DNA of 64,000 nt, from positions 11,998 through 75,997 of the forward strand of contig JAVBLM010000049.1 of NCBI GenBank assembly GCA_031553535.1, given 5' to 3'. Positions 24,136 to 62,686 of this stretch are shown here, one piece after another. The translations under genes were made by a program, and so were the position numbers. Positions within the stretch are counted from its first letter, which is position 1; every line of letters starts with the position of its first letter. The notes under the pieces were generated by a model. That model did no database searches and was not told where the DNA came from. It worked only from the letters and a program-made list of their open reading frames with translations. Source of the stretch: Bacteroidales bacterium. Its GTDB lineage: Bacteria; Bacteroidota; Bacteroidia; Bacteroidales; WCHB1-69.

Positions 24136-24400
24136 GGTTTCGGGTCTTGTAATTAAGGTTTTTATTTATTTAATGTTTTAACTTAGTCCTTAATTTTCTT
24201 CCATTCTTGTTGTGTGTTCTTGTGTTCTGTTTTTTTTCTGTAACTTCTTGTAACTTGCCTAACTTCTGTTCCCCTTTTATAATATATATTGATAGGTAGT
24301 GAAATCATAGTGAAATGTAACTTTTTTACTCGGACTTTCGTATCAAAAAAAAATGCATTATTTTAATAATTAAGAAGTACTTTTATATTAAAAAAAAATG

Positions 24401-30452: not shown

Positions 30453-32108
30453 ATGGAAATAGTTTGTGTTAATAAAGGGAATTTTAAAAAGCAATATCCT
30501 CACGGTACCAGATTATCGGAGATTGCAAAGGATTTAGATATACAATTGGCATATCCTATTGTAGGAGCGAAGGTTAATAACAGAATTAAATCGCTGAATT
30601 ATAGAGTTTATGCGAATAAAGTCATTGATTTTTTTGATGCCAGTAATGTGTCCGGAGATGCAATGTATAATCGTTCGTTAAACTTTTTGTTATACAAGGC
30701 AGTTAAAGACCTTTATCCTAATGAAGATATTGTTATAAAACATTCCATATCAGGAGGAAGATATTGTGAGTTTGAGAATCCTGATTTTCAGGTTGACGAT
30801 CTTGTTGTTGCCGGTCTGGAGGAACGAATGAGGAAATTGGTAGAATTGGATCTTCCTTTTGTCCGTAAAACCATGTTGACACAGGAAGCAATAGACTTGT
30901 ATAACTCACAGAGAATGCACGATAAAGAACAATTACTAAAACAGCGGAATGTGTTTTATACTTCTGTATATTCTATAGAAGGCACAATTAATTATTTTTT
31001 TGGTTGCTTAGTGCCTTCAACAGGGTATTTGAAATATTTCGGTTTGGCTAGATATGAAACGGGAATATTATTAAGAACTCCGTCAAGGCATGTTCCTGAC
31101 AGGATGTCTCCGGTACGTAAATCTCCAAAGTTATTTAGTGTATTTAAAGAACATAAGGAGTGGAGTCAAATTATGGAAGTTCCTTATGTAGGGGATTTGG
31201 ATGATGTGGTAAAATCAGGAGGAGGCAAGAATTTGGTTTTGGTTTCGGAAGCTCTTCAGGAAAAGAAGATTGTTAAGATTGCAGATGAAGTTGCTGCCCG
31301 GGGAAATGTGAAGATGGTTCTTATTAGCGGACCCTCTTCATCGGGAAAAACAACGACATGCCGCCGCGTAGCTGTTCAACTTGAAGTTTTGGGTTATCAT
31401 GCCGTGCAAATATCGGCGGATAATTATTTTGTAGAAAGGGATCTGACTCCTAAAGATGAGAATGGGAATTTTGACTTTGAACATATCGAAGCACTTGATC
31501 TGGAACTACTGAATCAACAATTAACAGATTTACTTGCAGGAAAAGAAATAAAAACACCTACATTTGATTTTCAGCAAGGGAAGAAAATATGGACGGGCTC
31601 TACGCTGAAACTAAAAAAGAATTCGATTATTCTCATGGAAGGAATTCATTGTTTAAATCCGACCTTAACCAAGAGTATAGACAGTTCCCTTACGTATAAA
31701 ATATTTGTTTCGGCATTAACTTCATTAGCTATGGATAAGCATAACCCTATTCATTCTAATGATAATCGATTAATACGTCGGATTGTACGGGATAATAACT
31801 TTAGGGGTTATTCGGCAACGGAATCTTTACGTCGATGGGCGAGTGTGCGGAAAGGAGAGGAAAAATGGATTTTTCCATACCAGGAGAATGCAGATATTAT
31901 GTTTAATTCTGCGATGCTTTGTGAATTAAGTTTGTTTAAAAAACATGCTGTTCCTTTGCTTGAACAAGTGCCCGAAAATATAGATGAACGAACGGAGGCA
32001 ATGCGTTTGATAAAACTGTTTAGCTATTTTATGGAAATATCTGAAAAAGATGTACCTCATTTTTCCATATTGCGTGAATTTTTTGGCGGCAGTGTTTTTG
32101 AATATTAA
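30453..32108 (+). CDS. Uridine kinase/PRK-family nucleoside kinase with N-terminal ThrRS/TGS-like domains
   Basis: 551 aa. P-loop ISGPSSSGKTTT, then ISADNYF...FD.PEALD and an NPRL-type tail (RLIRRIVRD..FRG). Confidence 0.55.
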   Translation: MEIVCVNKGNFKKQYPHGTRLSEIAKDLDIQLAYPIVGAKVNNRIKSLNYRVYANKVIDFFDASNVSGDAMYNRSLNFLLYKAVKDLYPNEDIVIKHSISGGRYCEFENPDFQVDDLVVAGLEERMRKLVELDLPFVRKTMLTQEAIDLYNSQRMHDKEQLLKQRNVFYTSVYSIEGTINYFFGCLVPSTGYLKYFGLARYETGILLRTPSRHVPDRMSPVRKSPKLFSVFKEHKEWSQIMEVPYVGDLDDVVKSGGGKNLVLVSEALQEKKIVKIADEVAARGNVKMVLISGPSSSGKTTTCRRVAVQLEVLGYHAVQISADNYFVERDLTPKDENGNFDFEHIEALDLELLNQQLTDLLAGKEIKTPTFDFQQGKKIWTGSTLKLKKNSIILMEGIHCLNPTLTKSIDSSLTYKIFVSALTSLAMDKHNPIHSNDNRLIRRIVRDNNFRGYSATESLRRWASVRKGEEKWIFPYQENADIMFNSAMLCELSLFKKHAVPLLEQVPENIDERTEAMRLIKLFSYFMEISEKDVPHFSILREFFGGSVFEY

Positions 32109-32159
32109 TAGAAGTTACGCAAAGCAGAAAATAGTGATAAATGATTAATCATGAAAACC

Positions 32160-32215
32160 AACACCGTCATCGCGAGAAGGAACGGCGAAGCGATCCGCAA
32201 GAAAACAATAAGCGA
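32160..32215 (+). repeat. Fragment of mosaic repeat (gtcatcgcgag...gaacggcgaagcgatccgc module)
   Basis: Resembles the gtcattgcgaggaacgaagc modules at 35037 and 46660-46720. Lies immediately upstream of 42 bp array A. Confidence 0.6.
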
Positions 32216-32260: not shown

Positions 32261-32400
32261 TTTCGGGTCTTCCCGAAATCTCCAAATGAAAGTTTAAAAC
32301 GTTTTCGGGTCTTCCCGAAATGTCCAAATGAAAGTTTAAACTGTTTTCGGGTTTTCCCGAAATGTCCAAATGAAAGGATAAACTGTTTTTAGGAACTGCC
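32261..32400 (+). repeat. 42 bp tandem array A (3 units plus degenerate end), unit tttcgggtcttcccgaaatgtccaaatgaaagtttaaactgt
   Basis: Unit starts at 32261, 32303 and 32345. Each unit begins with the hairpin tttcggg-tctt-cccgaaa. Confidence 0.9.
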
Positions 32401-32617
32401 GGATGGATAAAAATCTTCAAAAAGGTTTTTCCTTGTAAGTAATGATATTTTTAGCAGGTCGTTTACCTATGGAGAATTAGTGTTTTTCAAATCAAACGAC
32501 ATGTGTATTTTGAATATTAATTTTTTATAAAAACGCAAAAAGGATAGATGAAATACATATATAAAACCACGATGCTGGTCATGGTTAATATTCGATAATA
32601 GATAATGTTTTTTTTTG

Positions 32618-34185: not shown

Positions 34186-34192
34186 ATAGATT

Positions 34193-34921
34193 ATGAAATA
34201 TGCATTGGTAACAGGAGGATCCCGGGGAATAGGTCGAGCGATATGTTTGGAATTATCCAAATCAGGATATGGTATTTTGGTAAATTATGTATCGAATCAA
34301 AATGCTGCCGAAGAAACGAAGAAAGCGATAGAAAGTCAGGGTGGAATAGCCGAATTAATGCCTTTTGATGTTGCTGATAAGAATGCCGTTGATACAACAT
34401 TAATTGCATGGATGGATGCACATCCGGATGATTTTATAGCTATATTAGTTAATAATGCAGGCATACGGCAGGATTCATTAATGATCTTTATGCAAGACGA
34501 ACAGTGGGATAATGTGATGAAAATCAATTTGGACAGTTTTTTTTATGTTACCCGAAGAGTATTGAAAGATATGTTATCCAAACGTTTTGGTAGGATTATA
34601 AATATTGTATCGTTATCCGGATTAAAAGGTTTACCGGGACAAACGAATTATTCGGCGGCGAAAGCAGGTGTGATTGGTGCAACAAAAGCATTAGCACAGG
34701 AAGTCGCCCCCCGTAAAGTGACGGTTAATGCAGTTGCTCCCGGATTTATAGATACGGATATGACAAAAGATATGGATGAGTTTTCATTGAAAACAATGAT
34801 TCCTTTGGGAAGATTCGGGAAAGCAGAGGAGGTTGCTTCATTGGTAGGCTTTTTATCTTCCGAACAAGCCGGTTATATTACCGGAGAAGTGATCTCTATT
34901 AATGGAGGACTATATACATAA
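34193..34921 (+). CDS. fabG: 3-oxoacyl-ACP reductase (SDR)
   Basis: 242 aa. TGGSRGIG, NNAG, and the catalytic YSAAK motif. Confidence 0.85.
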   Translation: MKYALVTGGSRGIGRAICLELSKSGYGILVNYVSNQNAAEETKKAIESQGGIAELMPFDVADKNAVDTTLIAWMDAHPDDFIAILVNNAGIRQDSLMIFMQDEQWDNVMKINLDSFFYVTRRVLKDMLSKRFGRIINIVSLSGLKGLPGQTNYSAAKAGVIGATKALAQEVAPRKVTVNAVAPGFIDTDMTKDMDEFSLKTMIPLGRFGKAEEVASLVGFLSSEQAGYITGEVISINGGLYT

Positions 34922-35036
34922 TTAAGAATTAAAAATTAATAATTAAGGATTCTGCTAAAATCTATGAGATTAGTAGGAAAATAAGTTTAGTTAATAGTAA
35001 AAAGTGAAAAGTAAAGTTGCATTGAACAAATAAAAT

Positions 35037-35150
35037 AGCGTCATTGCGAGGAACGAAGCGCTTGAGCCACGAAGTGTAGCGAAAGCATCGAAACGCAGTG
35101 AGATAACCGAGCTTGCGAGCTCAACGGAGTTAATCTCTGTCATTTGCAGA
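35037..35150 (-). repeat. Mosaic intergenic repeat copy (inverted relative to 975 and 24021)
   Basis: gcgtcattgcgaggaacgaagcg...gcatcgaaacgcagtgagataaccgagcttgcgagctcaacggagttaatctctgtcatttgcaga. Inserted between fabG and the KS gene of the cluster. Confidence 0.85.
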
Positions 35151-35243
35151 CATGGGATAATCCAGAGAAATTATTTATTAGAAACTGAATTGAGTAACTG
35201 AGTAAACAAAAAACATTCGGATTAGGAAATTGAAATATAATCT

Positions 35244-36467
35244 ATGAAAAGAGTTGTTATTACAGGTATGGGAATTTATTCTTGTATCGGGAAAGAATTG
35301 GGCGAAGTATGCAGGTCTCTTTATGAAGGGAAATCAGGTATAGGAATAGATCCTTTAAGGGCAGACTATGGTTATCGTTCCCCGTTAACAGGTATTGTGG
35401 AACGTCCGCAGTTAAAGGGTTTTTTAGATAGACGTGCCAGGGCATGCATGGCAGAAGAAGCCGAATATGCTTATGTCGCAACATTGGAAGCCTTGAAAAA
35501 TGCCCGGATTGATGATGATTATTTGGAAAACAATGAAGTTGGTATTTTCTTTGGCAATGATTCTTCCGCAAAGGCGGTGATAGAATCCCATACAATTGCC
35601 ATGGAGAAGAAAGATACTACATTGATAGGTTCCGGTGCAATATTTCAGTCGATGAACTCTACCGTAACCATGAATTTATCAACCATTTTCAAGATTAAAG
35701 GGATTAATCTGACTATAAGTGCAGCCTGTGCAAGCGGTTCCCATGCTATAGGAATGGGGTATACATTTATTCGCCATGGTATGCAGGATGTTGTATTATG
35801 TGGAGGTGCCCAGGAAACAAATTTTTATTCTATGGGTAGCTTTGATGGGTTGAGCGTGTTTTCTCTCCGGTTGGATGATCCTACAAAAGCTTCCCGCCCA
35901 TTCGATGCAAGCCGGGACGGTTTGGTGCCCAGTGGAGGCGCTGCCTGTTTAGTACTGGAAGAGTACGAACATGCAAAAAAACGAGGGGCTACGATTTTGG
36001 CAGAAGTAATTGGGTATGGCTTTTCCTCTAATGGCGGAGCGGCTATTTCGCAGCCTAATGAGACAGGATCGTATATTGCAATGAAAAGGGCATTGAAAGA
36101 TGCTCATATTCAAAGCAAAGATATTGATTATATCAATGCCCATGCAACTTCAACACCTCAGGGAGATGCTGTGGAGGCGATAGCAATAGATAAGTTGTTT
36201 TCAGGGACAAAGCCTTTGGTTAGCTCTACCAAATCAATGACAGGACATGAATGCTGGATGGCAGGAGCTAGTGAGATTGTTTATTCCATATTGATGATGC
36301 AGAATTCCTTTGTGGCTCCTAATATCAATTTTGAACATCCGGATGAATATTCTCAAAAACTGAATATCGCAACAGAAACAATAAATAAAAATATAGATGT
36401 CTTTTTGTCAAATTCTTTTGGATTTGGAGGAACAAACAGTGCATTAGTGATTCGAAAAATTAAATAA
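35244..36467 (+). CDS. Beta-ketoacyl-ACP synthase (KAS I/II type)
   Basis: 407 aa. Cys-His-His triad contexts SAACASGSHAIG, NAHATSTPQGD and MTGHECWMAG. C-terminal SNSFGFGGTN. Confidence 0.85.
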   Translation: MKRVVITGMGIYSCIGKELGEVCRSLYEGKSGIGIDPLRADYGYRSPLTGIVERPQLKGFLDRRARACMAEEAEYAYVATLEALKNARIDDDYLENNEVGIFFGNDSSAKAVIESHTIAMEKKDTTLIGSGAIFQSMNSTVTMNLSTIFKIKGINLTISAACASGSHAIGMGYTFIRHGMQDVVLCGGAQETNFYSMGSFDGLSVFSLRLDDPTKASRPFDASRDGLVPSGGAACLVLEEYEHAKKRGATILAEVIGYGFSSNGGAAISQPNETGSYIAMKRALKDAHIQSKDIDYINAHATSTPQGDAVEAIAIDKLFSGTKPLVSSTKSMTGHECWMAGASEIVYSILMMQNSFVAPNINFEHPDEYSQKLNIATETINKNIDVFLSNSFGFGGTNSALVIRKIK

Positions 36468-36472
36468 TTACC

Positions 36473-36721
36473 ATGACTAGAGAAGAAGTAGTAAAAACAG
36501 TAAATACCTTTTTAATAGAAGAAATAGAAGTAGAAGAAGATCTTTTGAAGGAAGATGCCTTGTTAAAAGAAGATCTTGGAATAGATAGTCTTGATTTTGT
36601 CGACATTGTCGTGATAGTGGAACGCTACTTCGGATTTAAGATTAAGCCGGAAGAGATGTCCGATGTGCGAACATTAGCTCAATTCTATGATTATATAGCA
36701 GATAAAGTAAAAGATAAATAA
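36473..36721 (+). CDS. Acyl carrier protein
   Basis: 82 aa with the phosphopantetheine site LGIDSLDFVD. Confidence 0.8.
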   Translation: MTREEVVKTVNTFLIEEIEVEEDLLKEDALLKEDLGIDSLDFVDIVVIVERYFGFKIKPEEMSDVRTLAQFYDYIADKVKDK

Positions 36722-36723
36722 GA

Positions 36724-37617
36724 ATGGAGCAATCCCGCGAATGGAAAGGGAAAACAGGAGGGGGCAAATTCGGGCAAAAGAGTTTGTTCTTTATGCTCCG
36801 TCTCGTGAATGTTTCTCTTTTCTATCCGATATTATTTGCAATAGTTCCATTTTATATGCTTTTTGGGCGGAAGGGCTATAAAGCAATTATGCGATATTTT
36901 AAGCAGTGCTATGATCTTCCGGGATGGAAGGCCTTTTGTCAAACTTTTCGCAATCATTTGGTATTTGCTCAAGTGGTATTAGATAAGTTTTCTGTAGTGG
37001 CAGGAAATAAAGATCATTATACTATTGATATTACAGGGAAGGCGTATTTTGATGAATTGATGTCTAGGGATACCGGCTTTATTGTAGCGAGTTCGCATAT
37101 CGGGAATTTCGAGATGGGGGGGTATATCTTTCAACAGAATAATAGGCAATTGAATGCACTTATCTATGGGGGAGAAGCTGAAGAAATGCTTCACAATAGA
37201 GTTCATGCTCTGAAAGAGGTAAATATTAATGCCATTTCGGTTAAGGAAGATATGTCTCATTTATTTACAATAAAGCAGGCATTGGAAAATGGTGAAATAT
37301 TGACAATTCCTTGCGATCGGGTTTATGGAAGTCCTAAAAAAGTAAAATGTGAATTCTTAGGACAAGAAGCTTATTTTCCGTTGGGTCCTTTTCGCTTGGC
37401 GGTACAAATGAATGTTCCTGTGGTTGCTCTCTTCATGATGAAAGACAATAGTAAGAAATACCATGCATATATTCTTCCTGTTGAAGCAGACGCTATAGAC
37501 CCCAATCTTGCTAAAAGAGCAGAATTATTGGCTTGTGAATTTGTCAGAAACTGTGAACAAATACTCCGGAAATATCCTCGTCAATGGTTTAATTTCTATG
37601 ATTTTTGGAAAGTATAA
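36724..37617 (+). CDS. LPLAT/LpxL-like lysophospholipid acyltransferase (ApeD-like)
   Basis: 297 aa. N-terminal TM segment and the HX4(D/E) motif SSHIGNFEMGG. Typical position in aryl-polyene clusters. Confidence 0.55.
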   Translation: MEQSREWKGKTGGGKFGQKSLFFMLRLVNVSLFYPILFAIVPFYMLFGRKGYKAIMRYFKQCYDLPGWKAFCQTFRNHLVFAQVVLDKFSVVAGNKDHYTIDITGKAYFDELMSRDTGFIVASSHIGNFEMGGYIFQQNNRQLNALIYGGEAEEMLHNRVHALKEVNINAISVKEDMSHLFTIKQALENGEILTIPCDRVYGSPKKVKCEFLGQEAYFPLGPFRLAVQMNVPVVALFMMKDNSKKYHAYILPVEADAIDPNLAKRAELLACEFVRNCEQILRKYPRQWFNFYDFWKV

Positions 37618-37721
37618 ATTAAAAACGCAACAAGCAACAAGGATAAAGCCGATAAAATAGATAAAGTCAATAAAAGGATAAAATGCAGAAATTAATCATT
37701 AACAACTAACAATTAACAACT

Positions 37722-38810
37722 ATGAAACTTCCGTCCCCTCAAAAAGAGATATACAGCAAAGAACGGATGACTGCTTTGCAAGCACAACGTTTTGCTCAGG
37801 AAATAGCTTTTGGCCCCATTGTATTCCAGGTGTCACGCTTAATGGTGAAATTTGGGATATTCAAATTATTGGATGATCAAAAGGAAGGATTGACAATGAA
37901 TGAAATTGTCGAAAAGACAAAACTATCCCGTTATGCGGTACAGGTTTTATTGGAATCGTCATTAACTATCGGAACGATTCTATTGAAAGAAGATAAGTTT
38001 ATTTTATCCAAAGCTGGTTGGTTTTTAATTCATGACGAAATGGTTCAGGTGAATATGGCTTTTAATCATGATGTTAATTATTTGGGAACGTTTGATTTGG
38101 AAGGTTCTTTGCTACATGGGAAGCCAGAAGGGTTAAAAGTCTTCGGGGATTGGCCCACTATTTATGAAGGCTTGTCTCAATTACCGGAGCAGGTACAAAA
38201 GAGTTGGTTCGGTTTTGACCACTTTTATTCGGACAATTCCTTTAAGCAGGCATTGGAAATTGTATTCGCAGATAATCCGAAGACTTTATTGGATGTAGGC
38301 GGTAATACCGGAAGATGGGCTACGCAATGCGTAAGTTATTCCGATACGGTAAACGTAACAATCATGGATCTGCCCCAACAGTTGGAAATGATGAAACAAC
38401 AGACAAAGGGCCTAAAAGGTGCGGATCGTATTGATGGATATCCTGCAAATGTATTAGATAAAGCCACCGCTTTTCCTGAAGAGTTTGATGTTATATGGAT
38501 GAGTCAGTTTTTAGATTGTTTTTCGGAAAAAGAGGTAACCGGCATTCTTACACGTGCGGCTGCTTCTATGAATTCCGGAAGCAGATTATTCATTATGGAG
38601 ACATTTTGGGACAGGCAGCGTTTCGAGACGGCATCCTATTGTCTGGCTCAGATCAGCCTGTATTTTACCGCTATGGCGAACGGTAACAGTAAGATGTATC
38701 ATTCCCAAGATATGGAGCGTTGTGTAAATGAATCCGGACTGTTTATACAAACTATTCATGATGGATTGGGGTTAGGGCACAGCATAATGGAATGCAGAAT
38801 TAGTTGTTAG
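37722..38810 (+). CDS. Class I SAM-dependent (O-)methyltransferase with N-terminal wHTH/dimerisation-like domain
   Basis: 362 aa with SAM motif I LLDVGGNTGRWA, then ...IMDLP.... Confidence 0.6.
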   Translation: MKLPSPQKEIYSKERMTALQAQRFAQEIAFGPIVFQVSRLMVKFGIFKLLDDQKEGLTMNEIVEKTKLSRYAVQVLLESSLTIGTILLKEDKFILSKAGWFLIHDEMVQVNMAFNHDVNYLGTFDLEGSLLHGKPEGLKVFGDWPTIYEGLSQLPEQVQKSWFGFDHFYSDNSFKQALEIVFADNPKTLLDVGGNTGRWATQCVSYSDTVNVTIMDLPQQLEMMKQQTKGLKGADRIDGYPANVLDKATAFPEEFDVIWMSQFLDCFSEKEVTGILTRAAASMNSGSRLFIMETFWDRQRFETASYCLAQISLYFTAMANGNSKMYHSQDMERCVNESGLFIQTIHDGLGLGHSIMECRISC

Positions 38811-38843
38811 TGATTAGCTGTTAGTGATTAATTAGTTATAAAG

Positions 38844-39209
38844 ATGAAAGAAAGTATATTGAGAGAGAAGAGTTTTCGCTTTGCAATAAGAATTGTGAAT
38901 CTTTATGAGTATTTATGTAGAGAAAAAAAAGAATTTGTTTTATCCAAACAGGCTTTACGAAGTGGTACTTCTGTTGGAGCGATGACCAGGGAAGCAGAAC
39001 ATTCAGAAAGTAAAGCAGATTTTATTCATAAAATGGCAATAGCTCAAAAAGAAATCAACGAAACTATTTATTGGCTCGAATTATTGAAAGAAACAAAATA
39101 TATTTCATACGAAGAATTTGAAAGTATTGATGCAGATGTGATTGAAATTATCAAGATGATAACGTCAACAATAAAAACAACAAAATCAAAATTAACCACT
39201 AACAACTAA
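38844..39209 (+). CDS. Four-helix-bundle protein (23S rRNA intervening-sequence protein family)
   Basis: 121 aa. FRFAIRIVNLYEYL...VLSKQALRSGTSVGAMTREAEHSESKADFIHKMAIAQKEINETIYWLELL is the family signature. Flanked by inverted word repeats. Confidence 0.8.
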   Translation: MKESILREKSFRFAIRIVNLYEYLCREKKEFVLSKQALRSGTSVGAMTREAEHSESKADFIHKMAIAQKEINETIYWLELLKETKYISYEEFESIDADVIEIIKMITSTIKTTKSKLTTNN

Positions 39210-39221
39210 TCACTAAAAAAG

Positions 39222-39644
39222 ATGTCAATCCCTTCCATTTCACGGTACATTCCACAGCGTTTGCCTTTTGTTATGGTGGATAAACTGATCTTTTGTAATA
39301 ACGAGCAAACACAGACAGAGTTCCTTATCCGGGAAGATAATCTATTTGTTGCAGATGGGCAGTTTCTGGAAATGGGTGTTTTGGAGAATGTTGCTCAGAC
39401 ATGTGCTGCCCGGTTAGGGTATTTAAATGAGAGTCAACCGGTAAAAATCGGAATGATCGGCTCGGTAGATAACTTTGAATTGTTTTATTCACCTTCCATA
39501 GGAGAGACAATTATTACCACCATTACTGTCACTGCTGAAGTTCTTAATGTTATATTATTATCGGCAAATACACTTTGTGGTGATACTTTGGTTGCTTCTT
39601 GTAATATGAAAGTTATATTAACGGATATCGTAAGTGAATCATAG
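39222..39644 (+). CDS. Hot-dog fold 3-hydroxyacyl-ACP dehydratase (FabA/FabZ-like, polyene type)
   Basis: 140 aa. IPQRLPFVMVDKL N-terminus, typical of dehydratases in aryl-polyene/flexirubin clusters. Confidence 0.5.
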   Translation: MSIPSISRYIPQRLPFVMVDKLIFCNNEQTQTEFLIREDNLFVADGQFLEMGVLENVAQTCAARLGYLNESQPVKIGMIGSVDNFELFYSPSIGETIITTITVTAEVLNVILLSANTLCGDTLVASCNMKVILTDIVSES

Positions 39645-39649
39645 AAGAT

Positions 39650-40081
39650 ATGGAGAAAGAAAAAGTTATATTGAAGGCGGAAAAGGAATTTAATGTACGT
39701 TTCAGCGAAGTGGATTCTATGGGTATTGTTTGGCATGGTTCCTATTCCCTTTATTTCGAAGATGCCCGGGAAGCATTCGGGAAGAAATTCGGCCTTGAAT
39801 ATTTGTATATGTTCGAGGAAGGCTTTTATGCCCCTTTGGTGGAGTTGCATTTCGAATACAAACGTCCTTTGAAATACAAAGATAAAGGTAGGGTAGAGGT
39901 TACATTTCGCAATACCGAGGCCGCCAAGATAATCTTTGACTATAAGATATTTTCTGTAGATTCCAATGAATTGATTGCAACAGGGTATTCTGTTCAGGTG
40001 TTTTTGGATAAGGATTATAGTTTGGTATGGTCGGCGCCTTCATTTTTTCTTCAATGGAAGCAACTCAACAGATTGATATGA
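39650..40081 (+). CDS. 4HBT/YbgC-like acyl-CoA/ACP thioesterase
   Basis: 143 aa. VRFSEVDSMGIVWHGSYSLYFEDAREAF is the hot-dog thioesterase signature. Confidence 0.7.
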   Translation: MEKEKVILKAEKEFNVRFSEVDSMGIVWHGSYSLYFEDAREAFGKKFGLEYLYMFEEGFYAPLVELHFEYKRPLKYKDKGRVEVTFRNTEAAKIIFDYKIFSVDSNELIATGYSVQVFLDKDYSLVWSAPSFFLQWKQLNRLI

Positions 40082-41232
40082 TATACAAGATAAGCGACAA
40101 TATTATTTCTTCATTGGGTTTTTCATCTTTAGAGAACTATCAGGCGGTTAAGACGGGAAGAATTGGATTGCAGTACTATGAACATGGATTTGGAGTACCT
40201 GAACCATTCGTTGCTTCTTTATTGGCGGAAGAAAAACTTGATCATACTTTCTTTAACATGCCCAATACAGGAAAAATAAACTATACCAAACTGGAAAAGG
40301 CTGCGATCCTGTCGGTTTATAATGCTCTTTCCAAAGCGGATATTGATCCTTCTAATGATAATGTTTTATTTATCTTTTCAACTACAAAAGGAAATGTAGA
40401 GTTGTTGGAAAAGAATGATTATGAGTCCGAGCGTATTTATCTATGGCGTTCGGCACAATTGATTGCCGGATATTTTGGAAACAGCAATGAGCCGCTTGTT
40501 GTTAGCAATGCTTGCATATCGGGCGTTGCGGCTCAGATTTCCGCAACGCGATATTTAACATCTCAAAGAGTTAAATATGCTATTGTTGTGGGTGCGGAAG
40601 TGCTTTCGAAATTTATCATTTCCGGTTTCCAATCTTTTAAGGCATTGTCTCAGGAGATATGCAAACCTTTCGATAAGAACAGGACCGGCTTGAATCTGGG
40701 GGAAGCGGCAGCTACTATTATTTATTCGATTGCCGGTTCAGAGGATCATATTCTGGATAATGCAATTGTTTTAGAAAACGGAGCCATTTGCAATGATGCA
40801 AATCATATATCGGGGCCATCCCGGACGGGTGAAGGGCTGTTTAATGCGATAACAAAGTCCATGCAGGGAATTGATAAAGAAGATATAAGTTTTATTAATG
40901 CTCATGGAACGGCTACTCCATACAATGATGACATGGAATCGATAGCAATAGGACGGTATGAATTAAGCACTGTTCCGGTGAATAGCCTGAAAGCTTATTT
41001 CGGGCATACATTGGGCGCAGCGGGCGTTTTAGAAACAATTATATCTGCCTGTGCACTGGAAGATAATGTTATCCTCAAAAGTTTTGGATGTGAAGAGCAG
41101 GGTGTTACATCACCTATACAGGTAAATACAAGTGTGACGGCATCCGGTAAAAATAGATTCTTGAAACTGATATCAGGATTTGGCGGCAGCAATGCAGCAA
41201 TCGTTATAAAAAGATACACCTCAAAAAAATAG
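40078..41232 (+). CDS. Beta-ketoacyl synthase (second KS of the cluster)
   Basis: The ATG at 40078 overlaps the preceding stop (ATGA). It is preferred over the ORF-track start at 40027. Cys-His-His contexts VSNACISGVAAQ, NAHGTATPYND and YFGHTLGAAG. Confidence 0.8.
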   Translation: MIYKISDNIISSLGFSSLENYQAVKTGRIGLQYYEHGFGVPEPFVASLLAEEKLDHTFFNMPNTGKINYTKLEKAAILSVYNALSKADIDPSNDNVLFIFSTTKGNVELLEKNDYESERIYLWRSAQLIAGYFGNSNEPLVVSNACISGVAAQISATRYLTSQRVKYAIVVGAEVLSKFIISGFQSFKALSQEICKPFDKNRTGLNLGEAAATIIYSIAGSEDHILDNAIVLENGAICNDANHISGPSRTGEGLFNAITKSMQGIDKEDISFINAHGTATPYNDDMESIAIGRYELSTVPVNSLKAYFGHTLGAAGVLETIISACALEDNVILKSFGCEEQGVTSPIQVNTSVTASGKNRFLKLISGFGGSNAAIVIKRYTSKK

Positions 41233-41862
41233 ATGGAGTTGGAATTGGAAATAAAGTCATATTGCCGGATTACAAATCATAGCGTGTCTTTGAATGGGAA
41301 GGAAATACCTGTAACCCGTTCGAATGAAGAAGAAAGTATATGGTTGGACGATATCTATAGGTCATTGAAAATGCAATACCTGAAGTTTTTCAAGATGGAC
41401 GGCCTTTGCAAAGCCGGTTTTCTGGCGGCGGAATTGGTATGCAACGATTGCGGTTTGGACAGAGATAACCCGAAAAGAGATACGGCAATTGTATGCGTTA
41501 ATAGTTCTTCTTCTTTAGACGATGATACCGTTTACCAGCAGACGATTGAAGACAAAGATAATTATTATCCGAGTCCTTCTGTTTTTGTTTATACGCTGGC
41601 AAATATTGTAACGGGAGAAATCGCGATACGTCATAAAATTATGGGGGAGACTTCCTTCTATATTACCGAGAACTTTTCCCCGCAATATATTTGTGACACA
41701 ATAAATGATGTGTTTGCAGATAATTCCGTTAACGGATTGTTATGTGGATGGACAGAATATTATCATGGCAATTGTGATGTCTTGATGATGTATATTTGCC
41801 GAAGCGACGAATCCCCGGTGAAGCTGATATCACAACATATTGCCGGCTTGTATGGTATTTAA
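41233..41862 (+). CDS. KS-N-terminal-like protein lacking the catalytic triad (chain-length-factor-like partner)
   Basis: 209 aa, starting 1 nt after the KS stop. Thiolase-like N-terminal pattern (FFKMDGLCKAGFLAAEL...) without an active-site Cys context. By-eye call. Confidence 0.4.
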   Translation: MELELEIKSYCRITNHSVSLNGKEIPVTRSNEEESIWLDDIYRSLKMQYLKFFKMDGLCKAGFLAAELVCNDCGLDRDNPKRDTAIVCVNSSSSLDDDTVYQQTIEDKDNYYPSPSVFVYTLANIVTGEIAIRHKIMGETSFYITENFSPQYICDTINDVFADNSVNGLLCGWTEYYHGNCDVLMMYICRSDESPVKLISQHIAGLYGI

Positions 41863-41977
41863 TATTCCTTGGAGCAAGTTTGTTCTTTCCGTTTCCGCTA
41901 TAGTAATGTCGTGAGCTTACTTATCGGTTGTCATTATGTATGGGGAATTTTTGTAATTTTGCCTTGAATATATATGG

Positions 41978-43048
41978 ATGTTAAAAATGAAAGTTAAGTT
42001 ATTCCTTACTTTTGATCATGAGTTACCTTTAGGTGGGTTAAATACTTCGTATAAGAAAGCATTGTTTGATCCGACTCAGAAAGTTATGGACATAGCAGAC
42101 AGGTATGGTATTAAAATAACCTTATTTTCGGATATTCTTTGTGCTTACAGATATAAAGAATGGGATTTCGAAGGATTTTATCTGCCGTATCAAGAACAAC
42201 TCCAATATGCAATTGTAAACAGGAATGATGTGCAGTTACATATTCATCCGCATTGGTTGACCACGGGATATAACAAGAAAGAGTTTTTACCCTCTAATGA
42301 TTTTACTTTATCTGATTTTAAGAATGATACATTGTTCGGAGGGATACCGGGAATTATAAAGTTTTCAATTAATGAGCTTTCCAATATATGTGTTCCGGTG
42401 GATAGCAATTACAAATGCATCGCCTTCCGGGGGGGCGGATATAATGTTCACCCCAATACGGATTTAATATTTAATAACCTGTATGATAATGGAATTTGTT
42501 ATGACAGCTCTATGGCAAAAGGTTATTATTTCAGATCCGGTATATCAGAGATTGATTTCAGAAAATTACCGGATTTACCTAACTGGATTGTTGATCCGGA
42601 GGATTATCATGCCGCATTATCGGATAGAACCGGGGTGCTGGAAATTCCCATTGCTACAATACCCAAAACCCCTTTTGAAATACCGACAAAGTTCAAATTG
42701 AAGAAATATGGGTACAGGGCAGTGGAAAATAGGGGTAGAGTTATTCATAACTACTATAAAGCCGACCTGTATTCAACGATAAAGATGCTTTTTGCTGCGA
42801 GAATGCTTACGTTTGATAATCATACATTGTCATTGGATTATCTTTTAAAAATAATTCAATACAACATTAGGAAATATGAAAATAAATCGAATGAGATCAT
42901 GCTTAGTGTAATCTCCCATCCCAAGAGTATGGGAAATTATTCTTTCGAATTGATGGAGGGATTTATATCTTCGATTCAGAGGTTGTACCCGGACGTGGAG
43001 TTTACTACATTTTCACAGCACCATAATATGTGGAGTCATACCAAATAA
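41978..43048 (+). CDS. Putative CE4/polysaccharide-deacetylase-like hydrolase
   Basis: 356 aa. LTFDHELPLGG, IKITLFSD and LHIHPHW resemble the Asp/His metal motifs of NodB-type deacetylases. Weak by-eye call. Confidence 0.35.
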   Translation: MLKMKVKLFLTFDHELPLGGLNTSYKKALFDPTQKVMDIADRYGIKITLFSDILCAYRYKEWDFEGFYLPYQEQLQYAIVNRNDVQLHIHPHWLTTGYNKKEFLPSNDFTLSDFKNDTLFGGIPGIIKFSINELSNICVPVDSNYKCIAFRGGGYNVHPNTDLIFNNLYDNGICYDSSMAKGYYFRSGISEIDFRKLPDLPNWIVDPEDYHAALSDRTGVLEIPIATIPKTPFEIPTKFKLKKYGYRAVENRGRVIHNYYKADLYSTIKMLFAARMLTFDNHTLSLDYLLKIIQYNIRKYENKSNEIMLSVISHPKSMGNYSFELMEGFISSIQRLYPDVEFTTFSQHHNMWSHTK

Positions 43049-43058
43049 CGGTGGAAAG

Positions 43059-43925
43059 ATGGAGATAAAAAAAATAATATGCAAGATAATCCCTAATCAT
43101 AAAATAGCAAAAATAAGGAATAAATACTATGTAGTACGCCAGGGATTTCATAGACCTATATCTGAGGATTTTTTCATGAATAAAGTTCTATTCAGGCTTG
43201 GTATAAACAAAGGGGATACATTGTTTATCCATAGTTCCATGGATTTCTTGAATATAGACTTTTCCCCCCTTCGGCTGTTGGATATACTGATTGATACGGT
43301 TGGGAAAGATGGGAATCTGATTTTTCCTGCCTGGCATTTTAACTACCGGGCAGAAGATTATTTGAAAGACGACAGTACTGTCTTTGATATAAAGCGTTCG
43401 CCGGCAGTAATGGGCTTATTACCTGAATTGGCAAGGAGGCTTCCGGGTGCACAGAGAAGTATTCATCCTGTAAGTTCGGTTGTTGCCGTCGGTATAAATG
43501 CGGAGGAAATAGTTGGTAGTCACGAACAATCCGTGTATCCCTGTGGGGAGTTAAGCCCTTATTATAAGATGTTGAAATATAATGCCAAGATAATAGGGCT
43601 TGGGGTTAACGCAAACTTTCTTTCGTTTGTTCATTGCCCGGAAGATATTATGGGAAAGGATTTTCCAATACAAACTCGAACCGACAAGTTGTATATAGGT
43701 AAAGTGAGATTAATTTCCGGTGAGATTGTTCATGTGGAGACACTGGCAGCGCATCAGAATATTCAGAAAAGGAATATACCTGTGTTCTTGAAGAAATATA
43801 TATCAGGGGAAATCTATTCTGCATATAGAATACATGGCAGTGATTTCTATGTTGTGGATGCAAATGCCTTGTTTGATAAAATGATCGGATTGGCCAAACA
43901 AAATAAAACGATATACAATACTTGA
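43059..43925 (+). CDS. AAC(3)-family (Antibiotic_NAT fold) N-acetyl/acyltransferase
   Basis: 288 aa. LGINKGDTLFIHSSMDFL...LLDILIDTVGKDGNLIFPAW matches the AAC(3) N-terminal signature. Confidence 0.55.
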   Translation: MEIKKIICKIIPNHKIAKIRNKYYVVRQGFHRPISEDFFMNKVLFRLGINKGDTLFIHSSMDFLNIDFSPLRLLDILIDTVGKDGNLIFPAWHFNYRAEDYLKDDSTVFDIKRSPAVMGLLPELARRLPGAQRSIHPVSSVVAVGINAEEIVGSHEQSVYPCGELSPYYKMLKYNAKIIGLGVNANFLSFVHCPEDIMGKDFPIQTRTDKLYIGKVRLISGEIVHVETLAAHQNIQKRNIPVFLKKYISGEIYSAYRIHGSDFYVVDANALFDKMIGLAKQNKTIYNT

Positions 43926-43926
43926 A

Positions 43927-45516
43927 ATGAAATATTTTATATTCAGGAATTATACAATCGAACCATTTTTTGAAGATATAAATGCTTCTTTTTCCGGATA
44001 TGGAGATATTTCTTTTATTGATGAGACGGCTGATGCTTATATCTGGTTTTATCTGCCGCCATATAAGGTCAGCAGTGATATAGCTGCTAAGGAAATATCG
44101 AATTATAGTAACTTATTGGAATTGATTTTGTCCCGATTGGATCCATCCAAGCCGTTTCTTATCTTTTCTATGCAGTTGATTTATAGTATACCTTATCAAC
44201 TGTCGGAGAATATATTGGAGGAGGCTATCTGCCAGTATAATCGTAGAATATATGGGATATCTGAAAATAATTTGAATATAAAAATCATTAATATATCCGG
44301 GTTTTACCGTCGCTTCTCTGAAAACGAATTGATAGACTGGAGGTTTTATTTCCTTTCGCAGATGTCTTTAAATCCTAAGCTGGCCAATGATTTTTCCCGC
44401 TGGTTTTTACGGCAATTGGATATTGTGGAAATGAAACGGAAGAAATGTATTGTTCTGGATCTGGATAATACCCTCTGGGGAGGAATATTGGGAGAAGATG
44501 GGGTGGAAGGTATAAAGATCGATGGCGATTACCCCGGTAATGCCTACCGTTTCTTTCAGCAATATTTGATGGAGTTGGGCCACCATGGGATATTACTGGC
44601 CATATGTAGTAAAAATAATGAAGAGGATGTTCTTGAAATATGGGAGAAATACCCTGATCTGATATTAGGGAAAGATAATATTGTAGCCTATAAGATTAAT
44701 TGGAATAACAAAGCCGATAATATAAAGGAGATCGCTTCGGAGTTAAATATCGGGTTGGACAGTATGGTTTTTATTGATGATAGCCCGGCAGAGAGGGAAT
44801 TAGTCCGGCAGATGTTGCCGCAGGTAACGGTTCCCGATTTTCCTGATCAGCCTTATCTTTTTCCTGAATTTATAAAAGGTCTTACAGAAAAGTATTTTAG
44901 CGCTTATCATTTGACCAGGGAAGATCTTTCAAGAATGCAACAATATAAAGAGAATTTTGCGCGTATACAAACCCAAGGTCGGTTTGCCGATTTTGAGAAT
45001 TATTTGCGAAGCCTGGAAATGGAGTTGACGGTAGAGCCATTGGATAATGTTAATATAACGCGTATTTCACAAATGACTCAGAGAACGAACCAGTTTAATT
45101 TGACAACTCATAGATATACGGAAGCGGATATTTTGGATTTTGCGAAAAGAAAATACTGGATTTATGCTCTACGGGTAAAAGACTGTTTCGGAGATAATGG
45201 CTTGACCGGGTTAATCATTTTAGATAAAAAAAAGGAATTGGCAAGGATTGATACATTCCTTTTGAGTTGCCGGATTCTGGGAAGGAATATCGAAGATGTG
45301 TTTATGCGGTATATGCTTATGAAATTAAAAAACAGTGGTGTACATAAGATTGAAGCTTCCTATATCGGAACCTCAAAAAATGGCCAGGTTGCTGATTTTT
45401 ATGACAGAATAGGCTTTGAGTTGAGGAATAACAATGAAGGAACTAAGAATTACTATTTGAATCTTAATAGATTTGAATATAATGTTGAGGATTTATATCT
45501 AATAAAAGAAAAATGA
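43927..45516 (+). CDS. FkbH-like HAD-IIIC family protein (glyceryl-ACP-forming phosphatase/transferase type)
   Basis: 529 aa. VLDLDNTLWGGILGEDGVEGIKI, ...LAICSKNNEEDV..., ...VFIDDSP.E. and a C-terminal GNAT-like region. Confidence 0.75.
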   Translation: MKYFIFRNYTIEPFFEDINASFSGYGDISFIDETADAYIWFYLPPYKVSSDIAAKEISNYSNLLELILSRLDPSKPFLIFSMQLIYSIPYQLSENILEEAICQYNRRIYGISENNLNIKIINISGFYRRFSENELIDWRFYFLSQMSLNPKLANDFSRWFLRQLDIVEMKRKKCIVLDLDNTLWGGILGEDGVEGIKIDGDYPGNAYRFFQQYLMELGHHGILLAICSKNNEEDVLEIWEKYPDLILGKDNIVAYKINWNNKADNIKEIASELNIGLDSMVFIDDSPAERELVRQMLPQVTVPDFPDQPYLFPEFIKGLTEKYFSAYHLTREDLSRMQQYKENFARIQTQGRFADFENYLRSLEMELTVEPLDNVNITRISQMTQRTNQFNLTTHRYTEADILDFAKRKYWIYALRVKDCFGDNGLTGLIILDKKKELARIDTFLLSCRILGRNIEDVFMRYMLMKLKNSGVHKIEASYIGTSKNGQVADFYDRIGFELRNNNEGTKNYYLNLNRFEYNVEDLYLIKEK

Positions 45517-45740
45517 GAGAAAGAATAAAATCCGTTATAAAACGGGTATTTAAATTAAATCATGTCAGGGATGATATATCGCAAAGTAACTGTGATCGGT
45601 GGAATTCATTAGGTCATTTGAATTTGATCGTAGAATTGGAGATGGAATTTGATGTCTCTTTTAAACCGGAGGACATTATCGAGATAAAATCATTGGATAT
45701 GATTGAAAAGAAATTAAACTCTTTTATTGCTGCGCGATAA
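45513..45740 (+). CDS. Acyl carrier protein (FkbH-associated type)
   Basis: 75 aa with a 4 nt overlap on the FkbH gene. Ser site in RWNSLGHLNLIVELE. Confidence 0.65.
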   Translation: MRERIKSVIKRVFKLNHVRDDISQSNCDRWNSLGHLNLIVELEMEFDVSFKPEDIIEIKSLDMIEKKLNSFIAAR

Positions 45741-45970
45741 TATTCCGGTATCAAACGATTACTATAACATGAGTTCGGGATTTATATCTCATTCCATCAA
45801 TGATTTGTCGAGTTTTAATATTGGAAAATCTTACAAACGAATGTAGAATCCCATTATATGAAAACAAAATATAGTAAAATAACGTTCCCTGATATAATAA
45901 AAGTATCAAATAAAGTAAGATAATCTATTTTTTTAGGGACTGTTTGATATAAAATACTGTTTCAAAAATG

Positions 45971-46240
45971 CCGGGCATACTTTCATAGTATTGCGAAATC
46001 GTCCCCGATGCTCCGGTCATACTTTCGCATAGTTGCGAAACCGTCTCCGATACTCCGGTCATATTTTCGCATAATTGCGAAACTGTCCCCGATGCTCCGG
46101 TCATACTTTCGCATAATTGCGAAACCGTTCCTGATGCTCCGATTATACTTTCGCATGGTTGCGAAACCGTCTCCGATGCTCCGGTTATACTTTCACCATG
46201 TTATGAAACCGTTTCCGGTATGCCGGGCATGATCCCGTGA
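45971..46240 (+). repeat. 42 bp tandem array B (6 units plus degenerate end), unit ccggtcatactttcgcataattgcgaaaccgtctccgatgct
   Basis: Unit starts at 45971, 46013, 46055, 46097, 46139 and 46181. Each has the hairpin tttcgca-taat-tgcgaaa. ORF 46008..46232 merely translates the repeat. Confidence 0.9.
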
Positions 46241-46429
46241 GTATTTTCCATTATTATTATTGTTTTCAGATTATTTTATTTCCTGCTGTAACCCAACCGG
46301 GCTTCAAAAAGACTGTCGTAATTATAAGAATAACATGAGTTTGGGATCAAACAAACAATAAATCAAAATATTATATAGTAGTGATTGAAATTTTTATTAG
46401 ACTTGTCAAAAGTTAAGATAAAATGAATA

Positions 46430-46900
46430 GGGATTCACTCCGTTGAGCTCGCAAGCTCGGTTGTTTCATCGTTTCTCCTCACAGTGACGGAAATGCGTCA
46501 TTGCTAACTTCATCCGCACCAGAACGCGAAGCAGGTAAGAGTAGTGAGACTTTTAAGCGAACTAATCCCTTCAAAAGAAAACGGATACTGAAACAAGTTA
46601 CCAATGACAGAGATTATCTCACTTCGCTTCGATGCTCTCACATGCTTTGCATTCGGATGCTTCGTTCCTCGCAATGACGCTCTTAACCAACATATTGCCG
46701 TTATTGCGAGGAGTGAGGGACGAACGACGTGGCAATCCCTGGCAAAAGAGCGATTTTTCTTTTCAGTTACTGTCATTTCTCACTGTTTGATTGTTTATTA
46801 TTTACCATTCAGTATGATACAGGTTTATTCAGAGCGAGGAACGAAGCACCTGGGGCACGAAGTGTAGCGGAAGCATCGAAACACAGTGAGATAACTCCTA
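46430..46900. repeat. Composite block of mosaic intergenic repeat modules in both orientations
   Basis: Contains ggattcactccgttgagctcgcaagctcggttg, agattatctcacttcgcttcgatgctc, cgttcctcgcaatgacg / ttattgcgaggagtgagggacgaacg, and gaggaacgaagcacctggggcacgaagtgtagcggaagcatcgaaacacagtgagataactcc. All have relatives at 975, 24021, 35037 and 52313. Confidence 0.85.
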
Positions 46901-61767: not shown

Positions 61768-62230
61768 TTTTTTTTCATTTAAACTACCTACTCTTTGAGG
61801 GGCTTTTCGGTAACCGCCCATACACAAATATTTTCTTTGCAAAATAGAAAAAAAATTAATACAAAATACAATAAAATAAAAAAAACATTATTTTGTTGTA
61901 TGTCAAATAAATAAAATTGATATTTTTATAAATCAAAGGCAGGCCTTCTGCAGGGATGAAAATATGTAAAAGTAAAAAACCAATGCAATTTTGCATGAAA
62001 ATTATAAAAATTGCGGAAAAAATAATAATTAACTATGGTGAATTATTTACATTCATTTTGTGGATTTATTGTGAAAAATGAGGTTGCAAGGTAATAAAAA
62101 GGAAGGCATGTAACGATGTTGTCAATAAAGCAAAATTGACTTCTATATTATTGCAATTACAGCCGGCCTTTGAAAGTCGTCCGATTGGCTTTGGAACAAA
62201 TGTAAGATAATATGAAAACAAAAATAAGAG

Positions 62231-62517
62231 GTTTCAAGAAAGTCTACAGGCGTTTTGCTTTTTCGTTTGGATCTTTCAGCAAATGTTGAAAATCTCCCGC
62301 TATTTACTTTGGGTCTTTCAGCAAATGTTGAAAGCCTCTCGCTATTTACTTTGGAACTTTCAGCAAATGTTGAAAGTCTCTAGCTATTTACTTTGGATCT
62401 TTCAGCAAATGTTGAAAATCTCCCGCTATTTACTTTGAAGCTTTCAGCAAAGTCTGAAATGATTAAACTATTTGCTTTAGAGGTTTCGGAAACACCCGAA
62501 AGAACTACGTACTTTTG
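62231..62517 (+). repeat. 42 bp tandem array C (4 good units flanked by degenerate units), unit ctttcagcaaatgttgaaaatctcccgctatttactttggat
   Basis: Unit starts at 62273, 62315, 62357, 62399 and 62441, with degenerate units at 62231 and 62483. Hairpin tttcagc-aaat-gttgaaa has one G.U pair on the + strand. The terminal unit has tttcgg-aaacac-ccgaaa. Confidence 0.9.
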
Positions 62518-62686
62518 TTTCTAAATGTATGTTATGAATGATATCCGGAAGATGTCTATTCTTTGATTGAATGACGGATATTTGTGTGAGGCGCACTATT
62601 ATATGCCTTTTAAATTCTAATCCGGTTTTAATCTCAGGTTTATTGTTTTCTAATCTTTTTCAAAATTAAATCTAATACATAAGAAT

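Follow-up and report, generated by a model that had tools for sequence, protein, structure and literature searches.

Three arrays of 42-bp tandem repeats (A, B and C) in a 64,000-nucleotide stretch of a Bacteroidales genome (contig JAVBLM010000049.1; the whole stretch is hereafter the window) are members of a family of intergenic arrays that is widespread in Bacteroidota, with its other members chiefly in the Fibrobacteres-Chlorobi-Bacteroidetes (FCB) group. The 42-bp unit of this family consists of two short palindromes, here called P1 and P2, whose centres lie 21 bp apart. The family is normally found directly 5' of genes that encode DUF6261 proteins, next to the promoter and start-codon region. 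The arrays most likely act as DNA, not as folded RNA, and we tentatively read them as phased, dyad-symmetric protein-binding sites along one face of the helix. The family is apparently undescribed. Its kind, tandem palindromic intergenic repeats or operator-like arrays, is familiar; novelty seems to lie in the architecture and in the gene link.

Tandem repeats in the window were detected with Tandem Repeats Finder (TRF), complemented by a repeat search and by reading of the sequence for decayed ends. TRF reports exactly three arrays with a period of 42: array A at 32261-32389 (3.1 copies, 93% matches), array B at 45971-46194 (5.3 copies, 85% matches) and array C at 62266-62459 (4.6 copies, 89% matches). 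With decayed ends included and no strand assigned, array A occupies 32261..32400 (three full 42-bp units and a decayed partial unit), array B 45960..46240 (about 6.5 units of 42 bp, the first and last degenerate) and array C 62232..62525 (about seven units of 42 bp). The window contains 22 matches to the frame TTTC-N10-GAAA, where dinucleotide shuffles give 4.4±2.2, and 15 of the 22 are array units in exact 42-bp register. A covariance model of the family, which is slightly circular in this use because its seed alignment includes the three window consensus units, scores array B at 25-35 bits (E 3e-6 to 7e-4), array A at 19-23 bits and array C at 16-21 bits. The same model, searched with filters off, finds no unit elsewhere in the window at E<0.1. 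An earlier reading of the window (the original prediction) had proposed three 42-bp arrays of one family sharing a TTTC...GAAA frame, and TRF, the pattern count and the covariance model all agree with it.

P1 reads TTTCGGG-TCTT-CCCGAAA in array A, TTTCGCA-TAAT-TGCGAAA in array B (with loop variants TAGT and TGGT) and TTTCAGC-AAAT-GTTGAAA, with one G·T pair, in array C. The stems named in the original prediction (GGG/CCC, GCA/TGC, AGC/GTT with one pair that it wrote as G.U, and a terminal CGG/CCG) are all read in the sequence, and the last unit of array C, unit 6, is TTTCGG-AAACAC-CCGAAA. Pair 5-14 changes from G-C to A-T in unit 6 of array B, and the G·T pair of array C becomes G-C in its unit 5. 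The end units of the arrays, the last two of array C among them, have stems that are altered yet partly paired. Array B had been described as six units; a six-unit array with a decayed end is indeed present, but units 1 and 6 are otherwise degenerate, which leaves four clean copies. The arrays had also been said to share one orientation. Their units are nearly dyad-symmetric, so orientation is ill-defined, and the covariance model scores highest on the minus strand for B and C but, by a small margin (22.8 vs 21.2 bits), on the plus strand for A. When the 24-nt stretch that follows P1 is folded, array B shows a weak P2 (CCG-N6-CGG, centred at unit position 30.5) and arrays A and C show none that is recognisable; the window arrays have lost most of P2.

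All three arrays are intergenic, as had been claimed: the open reading frames (ORFs) that overlap them are only 42-74 codons long and confined to the repeats. A protein-coding repeat of 14 residues (42 bp being 14 codons) is ruled out by these short, array-confined ORFs, and in the family scan described next a spanning ORF is absent from 81 of the 93 arrays with a 42-bp period. A CRISPR (clustered regularly interspaced short palindromic repeats) array is likewise ruled out, as the entire 42-bp unit, tail included, repeats and there are no unique spacers.

To delineate the family, GTDB representatives (a single genome for each species) were scanned for three TTTC-N10-GAAA frames spaced 42 bp apart. 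At least 106 loci were returned, mostly in Bacteroidota. The taxa among the matches listed are Dysgonomonadaceae, Tannerellaceae, Chryseobacterium, Flavobacterium, Chitinophagaceae and many termite-gut metagenome-assembled genomes (MAGs); a few of the matches listed lie beyond Bacteroidota (Fibrobacter, Caldithrix, Verrucomicrobiota and one array-rich Desulfovibrionaceae MAG). In viral contigs the same pattern was found at 4 loci in 2.9 million. A phage origin is ruled out by this count and by the lack of a PHROG match for DUF6261 or for the second array-linked protein family described below.

The search pattern imposes the frame and the period, so only features outside the pattern are tested by these loci. 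In a set of 121 arrays, the period is truly 42 bp in 93 and turns out to be 21 bp in 28. All three inner-stem pairs are Watson-Crick in 37 of the 93 arrays of 42 bp and two of the three are in 41, compared with 2 and 14 under a control pairing. The 24-nt tail has a position profile with dyad symmetry about unit position 30.5; folded alone, the tail forms a hairpin centred exactly on 30.5 in 28 of 94 arrays and on 30-31 in 46 of 94, as exemplified by a Chryseobacterium tail with the palindrome GTTGCA-CCCT-TGCAAC. Much of the family thus has another palindrome, 21 bp away, in what had been taken for a mere tail. The general form of P1 is TTTC-N3-N4-N3-GAAA, and P2 is variable, often ..GCA-N4-TGC.., with about half of the family lacking a clear P2. 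The 21-bp arrays keep TTTC-N10-GAAA, mostly without stem complementarity.

Covariation was assessed on an alignment of 84 distinct array consensus units. These come from independent loci in different genomes, and shared ancestry is therefore a minor concern. The two-hairpin structure scores 0.399. Shuffles score 0.156±0.011, with 0 of 500 attaining 0.399, and sliding the pairing partners gives 0.11-0.17. Changes on both sides are seen in all 11 variable pairs. The compensatory covariation of the inner stem that was originally noticed within the window thus extends to 84 independent arrays.

Clustering of the nearest ORFs on either side of the arrays at the scanned loci yields one large cluster, a protein of ~245 aa at 14 independent loci, which is a member of DUF6261 (Pfam, E = 2e-42). 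At these 14 loci the DUF6261 gene always points away from the array, which occupies its 5' side. Culturable bearers of a DUF6261 array include Flavobacterium columnare ATCC 23463 (L031), Chryseobacterium taeanense and C. takakiae. A DUF6261 neighbour accompanies ~15% of the pattern-found arrays among the matches listed. A reverse test took DUF6261 proteins from a protein search, fetched their contigs irrespective of repeats and checked the upstream sequence. A 42-bp periodic array lies upstream in 9 of 9 independent DUF6261 loci (L112, L113, L115, L117, L119, L120, L121, L122 and L123, where L115 is the same locus as L088 of the first scan). Frames like TTTC/GAAA are present in seven of these nine; the motif is replaced in L122, which has other palindromes, and in L123, and the period is still 42 in both. 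A metagenome scan for two units of TTTCGCA-N4-TGCGAAA identified five loci, three of which lie directly 5' of DUF6261 genes. The hairpin type of array B is thereby found 5' of DUF6261 genes in L126-L128, and also in L028 and L120. The distance from the end of the array to the DUF6261 start codon is ~20-100 nt and often only 20-50 nt.

DUF6261 genes occupy stable syntenic chromosomal contexts. A confident AlphaFold model of the protein built from 42 homologues is a long helical bundle (predicted local distance difference test, pLDDT, 89). A Foldseek search of this model against the PDB returned nothing at E<0.1, the best matches being generic four-helix sensor bundles, a profile search of PDB sequences gave no match, and NCBIfam gave only a weak, sub-threshold match to the CMD domain. 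DUF6261 is thus not an evident DNA-binding protein, although these results speak neither for nor against its binding nucleic acid. PADLOC and PHROGs return nothing for DUF6261 or for the second family, and the former result speaks against DUF6261 as a defence or toxin-antitoxin protein.

The arrays can be old. At a divergent intergenic region between recR and a DUF567-like gene, the array has equally many units in three Chryseobacterium species. Between species, the identity of orthologous units is 0.86-1.0, except that the fourth unit drops to 0.67 in the more distant species; units of one and the same array share 0.62-0.74. Orthologous units being closer than units of the same array, the recR-locus arrays predate the species splits and have not been homogenised, which is the opposite of the behaviour of a fast minisatellite. 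Copy number does change elsewhere. Loci L113 (2100-2500) and L114 (300-470) encode an identical DUF6261 protein preceded by four units in the former and less than one in the latter, a copy-number polymorphism between populations. Array-rich MAGs carry arrays at different loci that share 75-95% identity, with limited flank homology.

These results bear on whether the arrays are simply neutral minisatellites that are alike by chance, with the matches in other genomes an artefact of the frame search. The pattern does impose TTTC/GAAA and the period, we estimate that the frame arises by chance in ~6e-4 of 42-bp units, and some matches (for example L047, L068 and L029) are probably due to chance. 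Features that the pattern leaves free are nevertheless far from random, namely inner-stem complementarity, a P2 centre at 30.5, taxonomic concentration and the DUF6261 link. The reverse test, at 9 of 9, is independent of the pattern, and orthologous units are conserved across species. We therefore consider this explanation highly improbable; a neutral minisatellite was also the outcome that the original prediction had named as fatal to it, and the reverse test, the covariation and the cross-species unit orthology contradict it.

Strong compensatory covariation is no proof of RNA here, as palindromic DNA gives an equal signal. A hairpin that is constrained in one RNA strand tolerates G·U and not A·C, and a comparison of these two mismatch types can thus tell RNA from palindromic DNA. 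G·U and A·C are equally frequent in the 84 consensus units (80:80) and close to equal on the sense strand of the downstream DUF6261 genes (84:88, individual units at 18 loci). Wobble types are no more consistent within arrays than expected (S 76 vs 84±7 overall and 31 vs 44±5 in well-formed arrays, with no excess). Orientation by expectation-maximisation gives a modest asymmetry between a G-rich and a C-rich strand (log-likelihood ratio 482 vs 388±22 when symmetrised). This intrinsic orientation is mixed relative to the downstream gene (10 vs 6), and as it does not track gene direction it was rejected as a gene-linked feature. The equal frequency of G·U and A·C points to symmetry at the duplex level that is not RNA-like. 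Such strand-symmetric constraint fits duplex DNA in the form of palindromic sites, cruciforms or palindromes corrected by template switching. The original prediction had left the choice between a selected structure and an operator open. Constraint, as opposed to a neutral minisatellite, is upheld by these data, while the RNA hairpin that it listed is the least supported option.

An alternative is that the arrays form part of a transcript, be it the 5' leader of the downstream gene or an RNA of its own, and that their hairpins act at the RNA level, either as a repeat that binds or sequesters a protein or as a processed antitoxin-like RNA with DUF6261 as its partner, in the manner of type III toxin-antitoxin systems. 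Tandem repeats directly 5' of one protein gene are the architecture of ToxI-ToxN, in which ToxI comprises 5.5 × 36 nt located 5' of toxN; CptIN, TenpIN and AbiQ are further systems of this type. Like these systems, with their tandem repeats of 34-60 nt immediately upstream of one protein gene, the present arrays immediately precede members of a single protein family at 9 of 9 unbiased loci. The stems of both hairpins covary strongly. Array B folds better than shuffles on both strands (z ~ -4). The arrays often end 20-50 nt before the ATG with no recognisable -7 box between, and hence may be within the transcript. Set against this, as indirect evidence, are the lack of any excess of G·U over A·C, overall or on the gene-sense strand, the unfixed orientation of the arrays relative to the gene and the existence of 21-bp arrays without hairpins. 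The RNA of type III toxin-antitoxin systems is processed and co-oriented with the toxin gene, whereas here there is no RNA-type asymmetry, orientation is mixed and many arrays have no partner gene, those of the window included. DUF6261 is unrelated to ToxN and AbiQ, matches no PADLOC model and is found in stable syntenic chromosomal contexts. In the window a type III toxin-antitoxin system is ruled out by the neighbours of the arrays (a PRK-like kinase, an aromatic amino acid lyase, an ORF resembling acyl carrier protein (ACP), HydF and a cargo protein of the type IX secretion system (T9SS)). Rfam provides no match either: at gathering score the whole window contains only two tRNAs and a DUF805b motif, the array B region at E≤10 gives only chance matches, and the arrays of 18 related loci give nothing. 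A known RNA family is ruled out by these searches. Mainly on account of the missing G·U bias and the mixed orientation, we regard action as RNA, in any of these forms, as unlikely.

The surroundings of the window arrays are relevant to how they came to be there. Array A is flanked by a PRK-like kinase gene on one side and an aromatic amino acid lyase gene on the other, array B lies between the small ACP-like ORF and hydF on the opposite strand (a convergent arrangement), and array C lies on the 5' side of a T9SS-tail protein gene, with a stretch lacking long ORFs on its other flank. Array A sits within a ~390-bp segment between direct repeats that duplicate the 3' end of the upstream gene. The left copy, at 32088..32109 (+), is the final ~20 bp of the PRK-like gene, and the right copy, at 32477..32521 (+), was located by repeat search. 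Array B sits within a 566-bp segment between two copies of the 18-bp sequence ATAACATGAGTTYGGGAT, at 45764..45781 (+) and 46330..46347 (+), for which 0.12 copies are expected even with three mismatches. The direct repeats around arrays A and B resemble scars of insertion. Only motifs of 12-25 nt are common to the flanks of A, B and C, which have no common leader or tail. One short motif, (T)GAAAACAA, recurs beside all three arrays. A tblastn search of the 64-kb window found no DUF6261 homologue.

Under the reading that we favour, to which we give somewhat less than an even chance, the arrays would work as double-stranded DNA. They would present dyad-symmetric sites in a phased row, one per 21 bp or two helical turns, with the full unit spanning four turns. 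A putative dimeric DNA-binding protein would load side by side on one helix face, and the loaded protein would in turn set how the adjacent gene or genes are transcribed, or their local architecture. In the window, the arrays would be degenerate orphan copies on short segments between direct repeats; we call them degenerate orphans because they have no P2 or only a weak one and the window lacks a DUF6261 gene, and the segments between direct repeats suggest that they probably arrived by insertion or duplication. The data establish that the arrays exist, and with them their period, dyad symmetry, covariation, age, conservation and link to DUF6261 genes; binding of a protein, its loading on one face, an influence on transcription and an origin by insertion are inferred.

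Several points weigh against this reading. The main weakness is that a protein reading only TTTC and GAAA leaves the complementarity of the variable inner bases unexplained; complementary inner bases fit hairpin or cruciform formation, or templated correction of quasi-palindromes, better. The centres of TTTC and GAAA are 14 bp apart, while helix-turn-helix dimers usually have 10-11 bp. No candidate binding protein for the arrays was found, and DUF6261, a plain helical bundle with neither a structural nor a sequence match, does not suggest itself. In 8 of 39 scorable arrays the flanking genes are convergent, an arrangement that includes array B, where there is no promoter to regulate. Between array and ATG, the gene-sense strand lacks the canonical Bacteroidetes -7 box (TAnnTTTG) at 25 of 25 loci; the box is slightly commoner upstream of the arrays (4 sense vs 2 antisense), so the arrays could lie inside 5' leaders. 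By eye and by pattern scan, no consistent sigma-54 promoter or -7 box was found in the stretch between array and ATG. Finally, the dispersed paralogous arrays of array-rich MAGs resemble a spreading repeat.

The last point leads to a further explanation, in which the arrays are selfish or structural palindromic repeats of the kind represented by REP/BIME (repetitive extragenic palindromes and bacterial interspersed mosaic elements) or MITEs (miniature inverted-repeat transposable elements). Such repeats would spread within genomes with incidental effects on genes, either because a transposase sees their hairpins in single-stranded DNA or because template-switch correction keeps the palindromes. 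We consider this somewhat unlikely. It fits the window copies best, as these are degenerate, lack a partner gene, in one case lie between convergent genes and have direct repeats around them (14-20 bp around the array A and B segments). The recurrence of GAAAACAA around the arrays, the paralogous arrays at several loci of one MAG, the occurrence of arrays in all four flanking-gene configurations and the abundance of other intergenic repeat modules in the window are also consistent with it. Quasi-palindrome correction would give the strand-symmetric upkeep of palindromes that is seen here, and BIME-2 likewise forms tandem rows of two alternating palindromic units. In Bacteroidales, MITEs that bear minisatellites are known from the consulted part of the BrickBuilt report (PMC4596501). 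This explanation does not lead one to expect a fixed 5' position at DUF6261 across families or unit-for-unit orthology. In addition, the window contains no single units, the flanks of A, B and C have no leader or tail in common beyond 12-25 nt, neither a GTAG nor a CGTC tag is present and no transposase link is seen among flanking proteins. Binding sites in duplex DNA, repeats acting as RNA and selfish repeats are not mutually exclusive, and a functional cis element can seed orphan copies.

It is also conceivable, and in our view quite unlikely, that array and DUF6261 constitute a two-part system in which DUF6261 binds its own upstream repeats, either as DNA, like SopB on sopC, or as RNA, like ToxN on ToxI, along with the orphan arrays dispersed in the genome. 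This would amount to a new Bacteroidota-specific protein-repeat module, for which the 21-bp arrays that precede a second, unrelated protein family would be a parallel case.

This second family is a protein of ~220 aa encoded directly 3' of 8-11 units of the 21-bp repeat TTTC-N10-GAAA-N3 (loci L022, L058, L072, L057 and L063; for example ORF L058:4674-5333). The protein carries a C-terminal 'RWENTRGEKGPW' domain and has no Pfam match, and hhalign detects no homology between it and DUF6261.

A comparison with known systems helps to place the family. The sopC centromere of the F plasmid has 12 repeats of 43 bp in tandem, and SopB binds the 7-bp inverted repeat within each of them. Both sopC and the present arrays are built of head-to-tail units of about four helical turns that combine a short inverted repeat with a spacer, and sopC acts, as proposed for the arrays, as duplex DNA for a dimeric protein. 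They differ in that sopC is a single plasmid array beside sopAB, whereas the arrays described here are chromosomal, number many per genome and vary in their palindromes, with a second palindrome 21 bp away. Plasmid centromere and iteron arrays (sopC, parC, ori iterons) were rejected for the window, where three arrays lie in 64 kb of chromosomal-looking DNA with metabolic neighbours. Clustering of the flanking ORFs likewise shows no recurrent par or rep neighbour among the loci of the family scan (at least 106).

Phased regulator sites provide another comparison. BvgA binds the fha and ptx promoters as phased dimers on inverted TTTCCTA heptads, one dimer occupying ~22 bp, and the 9-bp repeats bound by LytTR regulators recur every 21 bp. 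These resemble the present arrays in their spacing of ~21-22 bp on one helix face up to the core promoter and in half-sites rich in TTTC/GAAA. By contrast, the BvgA and LytTR rows comprise 2-6 sites of decaying affinity rather than genuine tandem duplicates, and their variable positions are not known to covary; no regulator was found for the present arrays.

Among dispersed repeats, the REP/BIME elements of enterobacteria and Pseudomonas are the nearest comparison, with BIME-2 being a tandem row of alternating Y and Z2 palindromic units. Like them, the present arrays are intergenic rows of two alternating imperfect palindromes that are dispersed in the genome, and in both the stem has conserved basal bases and an interior that varies while staying complementary. 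REPs are described in the consulted part of one study as tagged with GTAG or CGTC (PMC3733652). Neither tag is present here, the stem foot being TTTC/GAAA in all units. The arrays further differ in their strict 42-bp period, the absence of singletons in the window and the fixed position 5' of one gene family. No transposase cluster is found among 199 flanking proteins, a count that includes no search directed at REP-associated tyrosine transposases (RAYTs).

BrickBuilt of Porphyromonas gingivalis, the closest Bacteroidales element in the literature, is, in the consulted part of its description, a species-specific minisatellite-MITE with a 23-nt unit and with a leader and tail that carry terminal inverted repeats (PMC4596501). 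The same part of the report shares several features with our family: a Bacteroidales host, an invariably intergenic location, spacerless tandem repeats, many loci per genome and a proposed influence on transcription. The unit differs (23 nt vs 42 bp), and that part of the report describes no unit of two palindromes. On the basis of this description, a BrickBuilt MITE is ruled out by the period of 42 and by the lack of a common leader or tail in the flanks of A, B and C.

The GUCCY-hairpin, according to the consulted part of Weinberg et al. 2010 (PMC2864571), is a single Bacteroidetes hairpin with GUC and CY flanks that is linked to GIY-YIG endonuclease genes. As described there, it resembles the present repeats in being a short Bacteroidetes hairpin repeat not in Rfam, and differs in lacking the 42-bp tandem structure and the TTTC/GAAA frame. 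One copy is located near array A: at 32163-32196, ~65 bp before the array, is an element of the form GUC-[hairpin]-CY (GTC ATCGC...GCGAT CC). The Flavo-1 motif (Weinberg 2010) is in Rfam and gave no match, and dCas12f guide RNA arrays (PMC13472631) are unrelated, consisting of 85-105-nt guide RNAs.

Literature searches for DUF6261 or for 42-bp repeats in Bacteroidetes returned nothing relevant, the full-text result for DUF6261 being one unrelated paper. The earlier statement that no described element class is recognisable thus agrees with both the Rfam and the literature searches. Little has been charted of the transcriptional control regions of Bacteroidota, a major group in the gut and in the environment. 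A phylum-wide phased element before one uncharacterised gene family offers a handle on the function of DUF6261 and on a regulator or a structural feature of DNA.

The arrays also have practical consequences, as they seem to break short-read assemblies and they attract spurious gene calls. The only public contig that contains the HydF of the window, Logan contig SRR23967709_155306 (L107), ends ~150 bp past hydF, before array B, and its end falls in the repeat-rich stretch adjoining that array. Many DUF6261 contigs are only ~1 kb long, which may be due to the same repeat-caused assembly breaks.

The window contains other repeats besides the arrays. Dispersed intergenic modules are present at 978-1045, 24023-24090 and 46418-46485 and also at 35041-35107 and 46829-46895; one such module has the core CTCCGTTGAGCTCGCAAGCTCGGTT, another measures 67 nt, and inverted copies of TGCTTCGTTCCTCGCAATGA are crowded together at 46600-46900. 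These dispersed modules are the mosaic repeat modules next to which the arrays had been placed by the original prediction, and their sequence is unrelated to the 42-bp arrays. The half hairpin TTTCGGGTCTT that it reported at 24131 is actually at 24138-24148 and is an 11-nt match of marginal significance.

Between arrays A and B, at 32659-45740, a run of co-oriented genes, ~13 kb long and ending in the ACP-like ORF, follows the gene for the aromatic amino acid lyase. Array A lies just before this stretch and array B just after it. Judged with the lyase alone checked, it looks like an aryl-polyene or flexirubin-type cluster.

Near array C, the cis-regulatory DUF805b motif (Rfam) is found at 61785-61820 (-) with 39.5 bits (gathering 35.6), at the 5' end of the Por_Secre_tail ORF 60784-61842. 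This match implies that the listed TTG start of the ORF is probably too far upstream. Within the same T9SS-tail protein gene, a 270-bp unit occurs twice at 60787-61316 (85% matches) and corresponds to a duplicated protein domain, with two near-identical 90-residue blocks in the translation. At 14848-14905, inside ORF 13317-15200, lies a 21-bp tandem repeat (2.8 copies, 94% matches) that is probably a coding repeat of seven residues.

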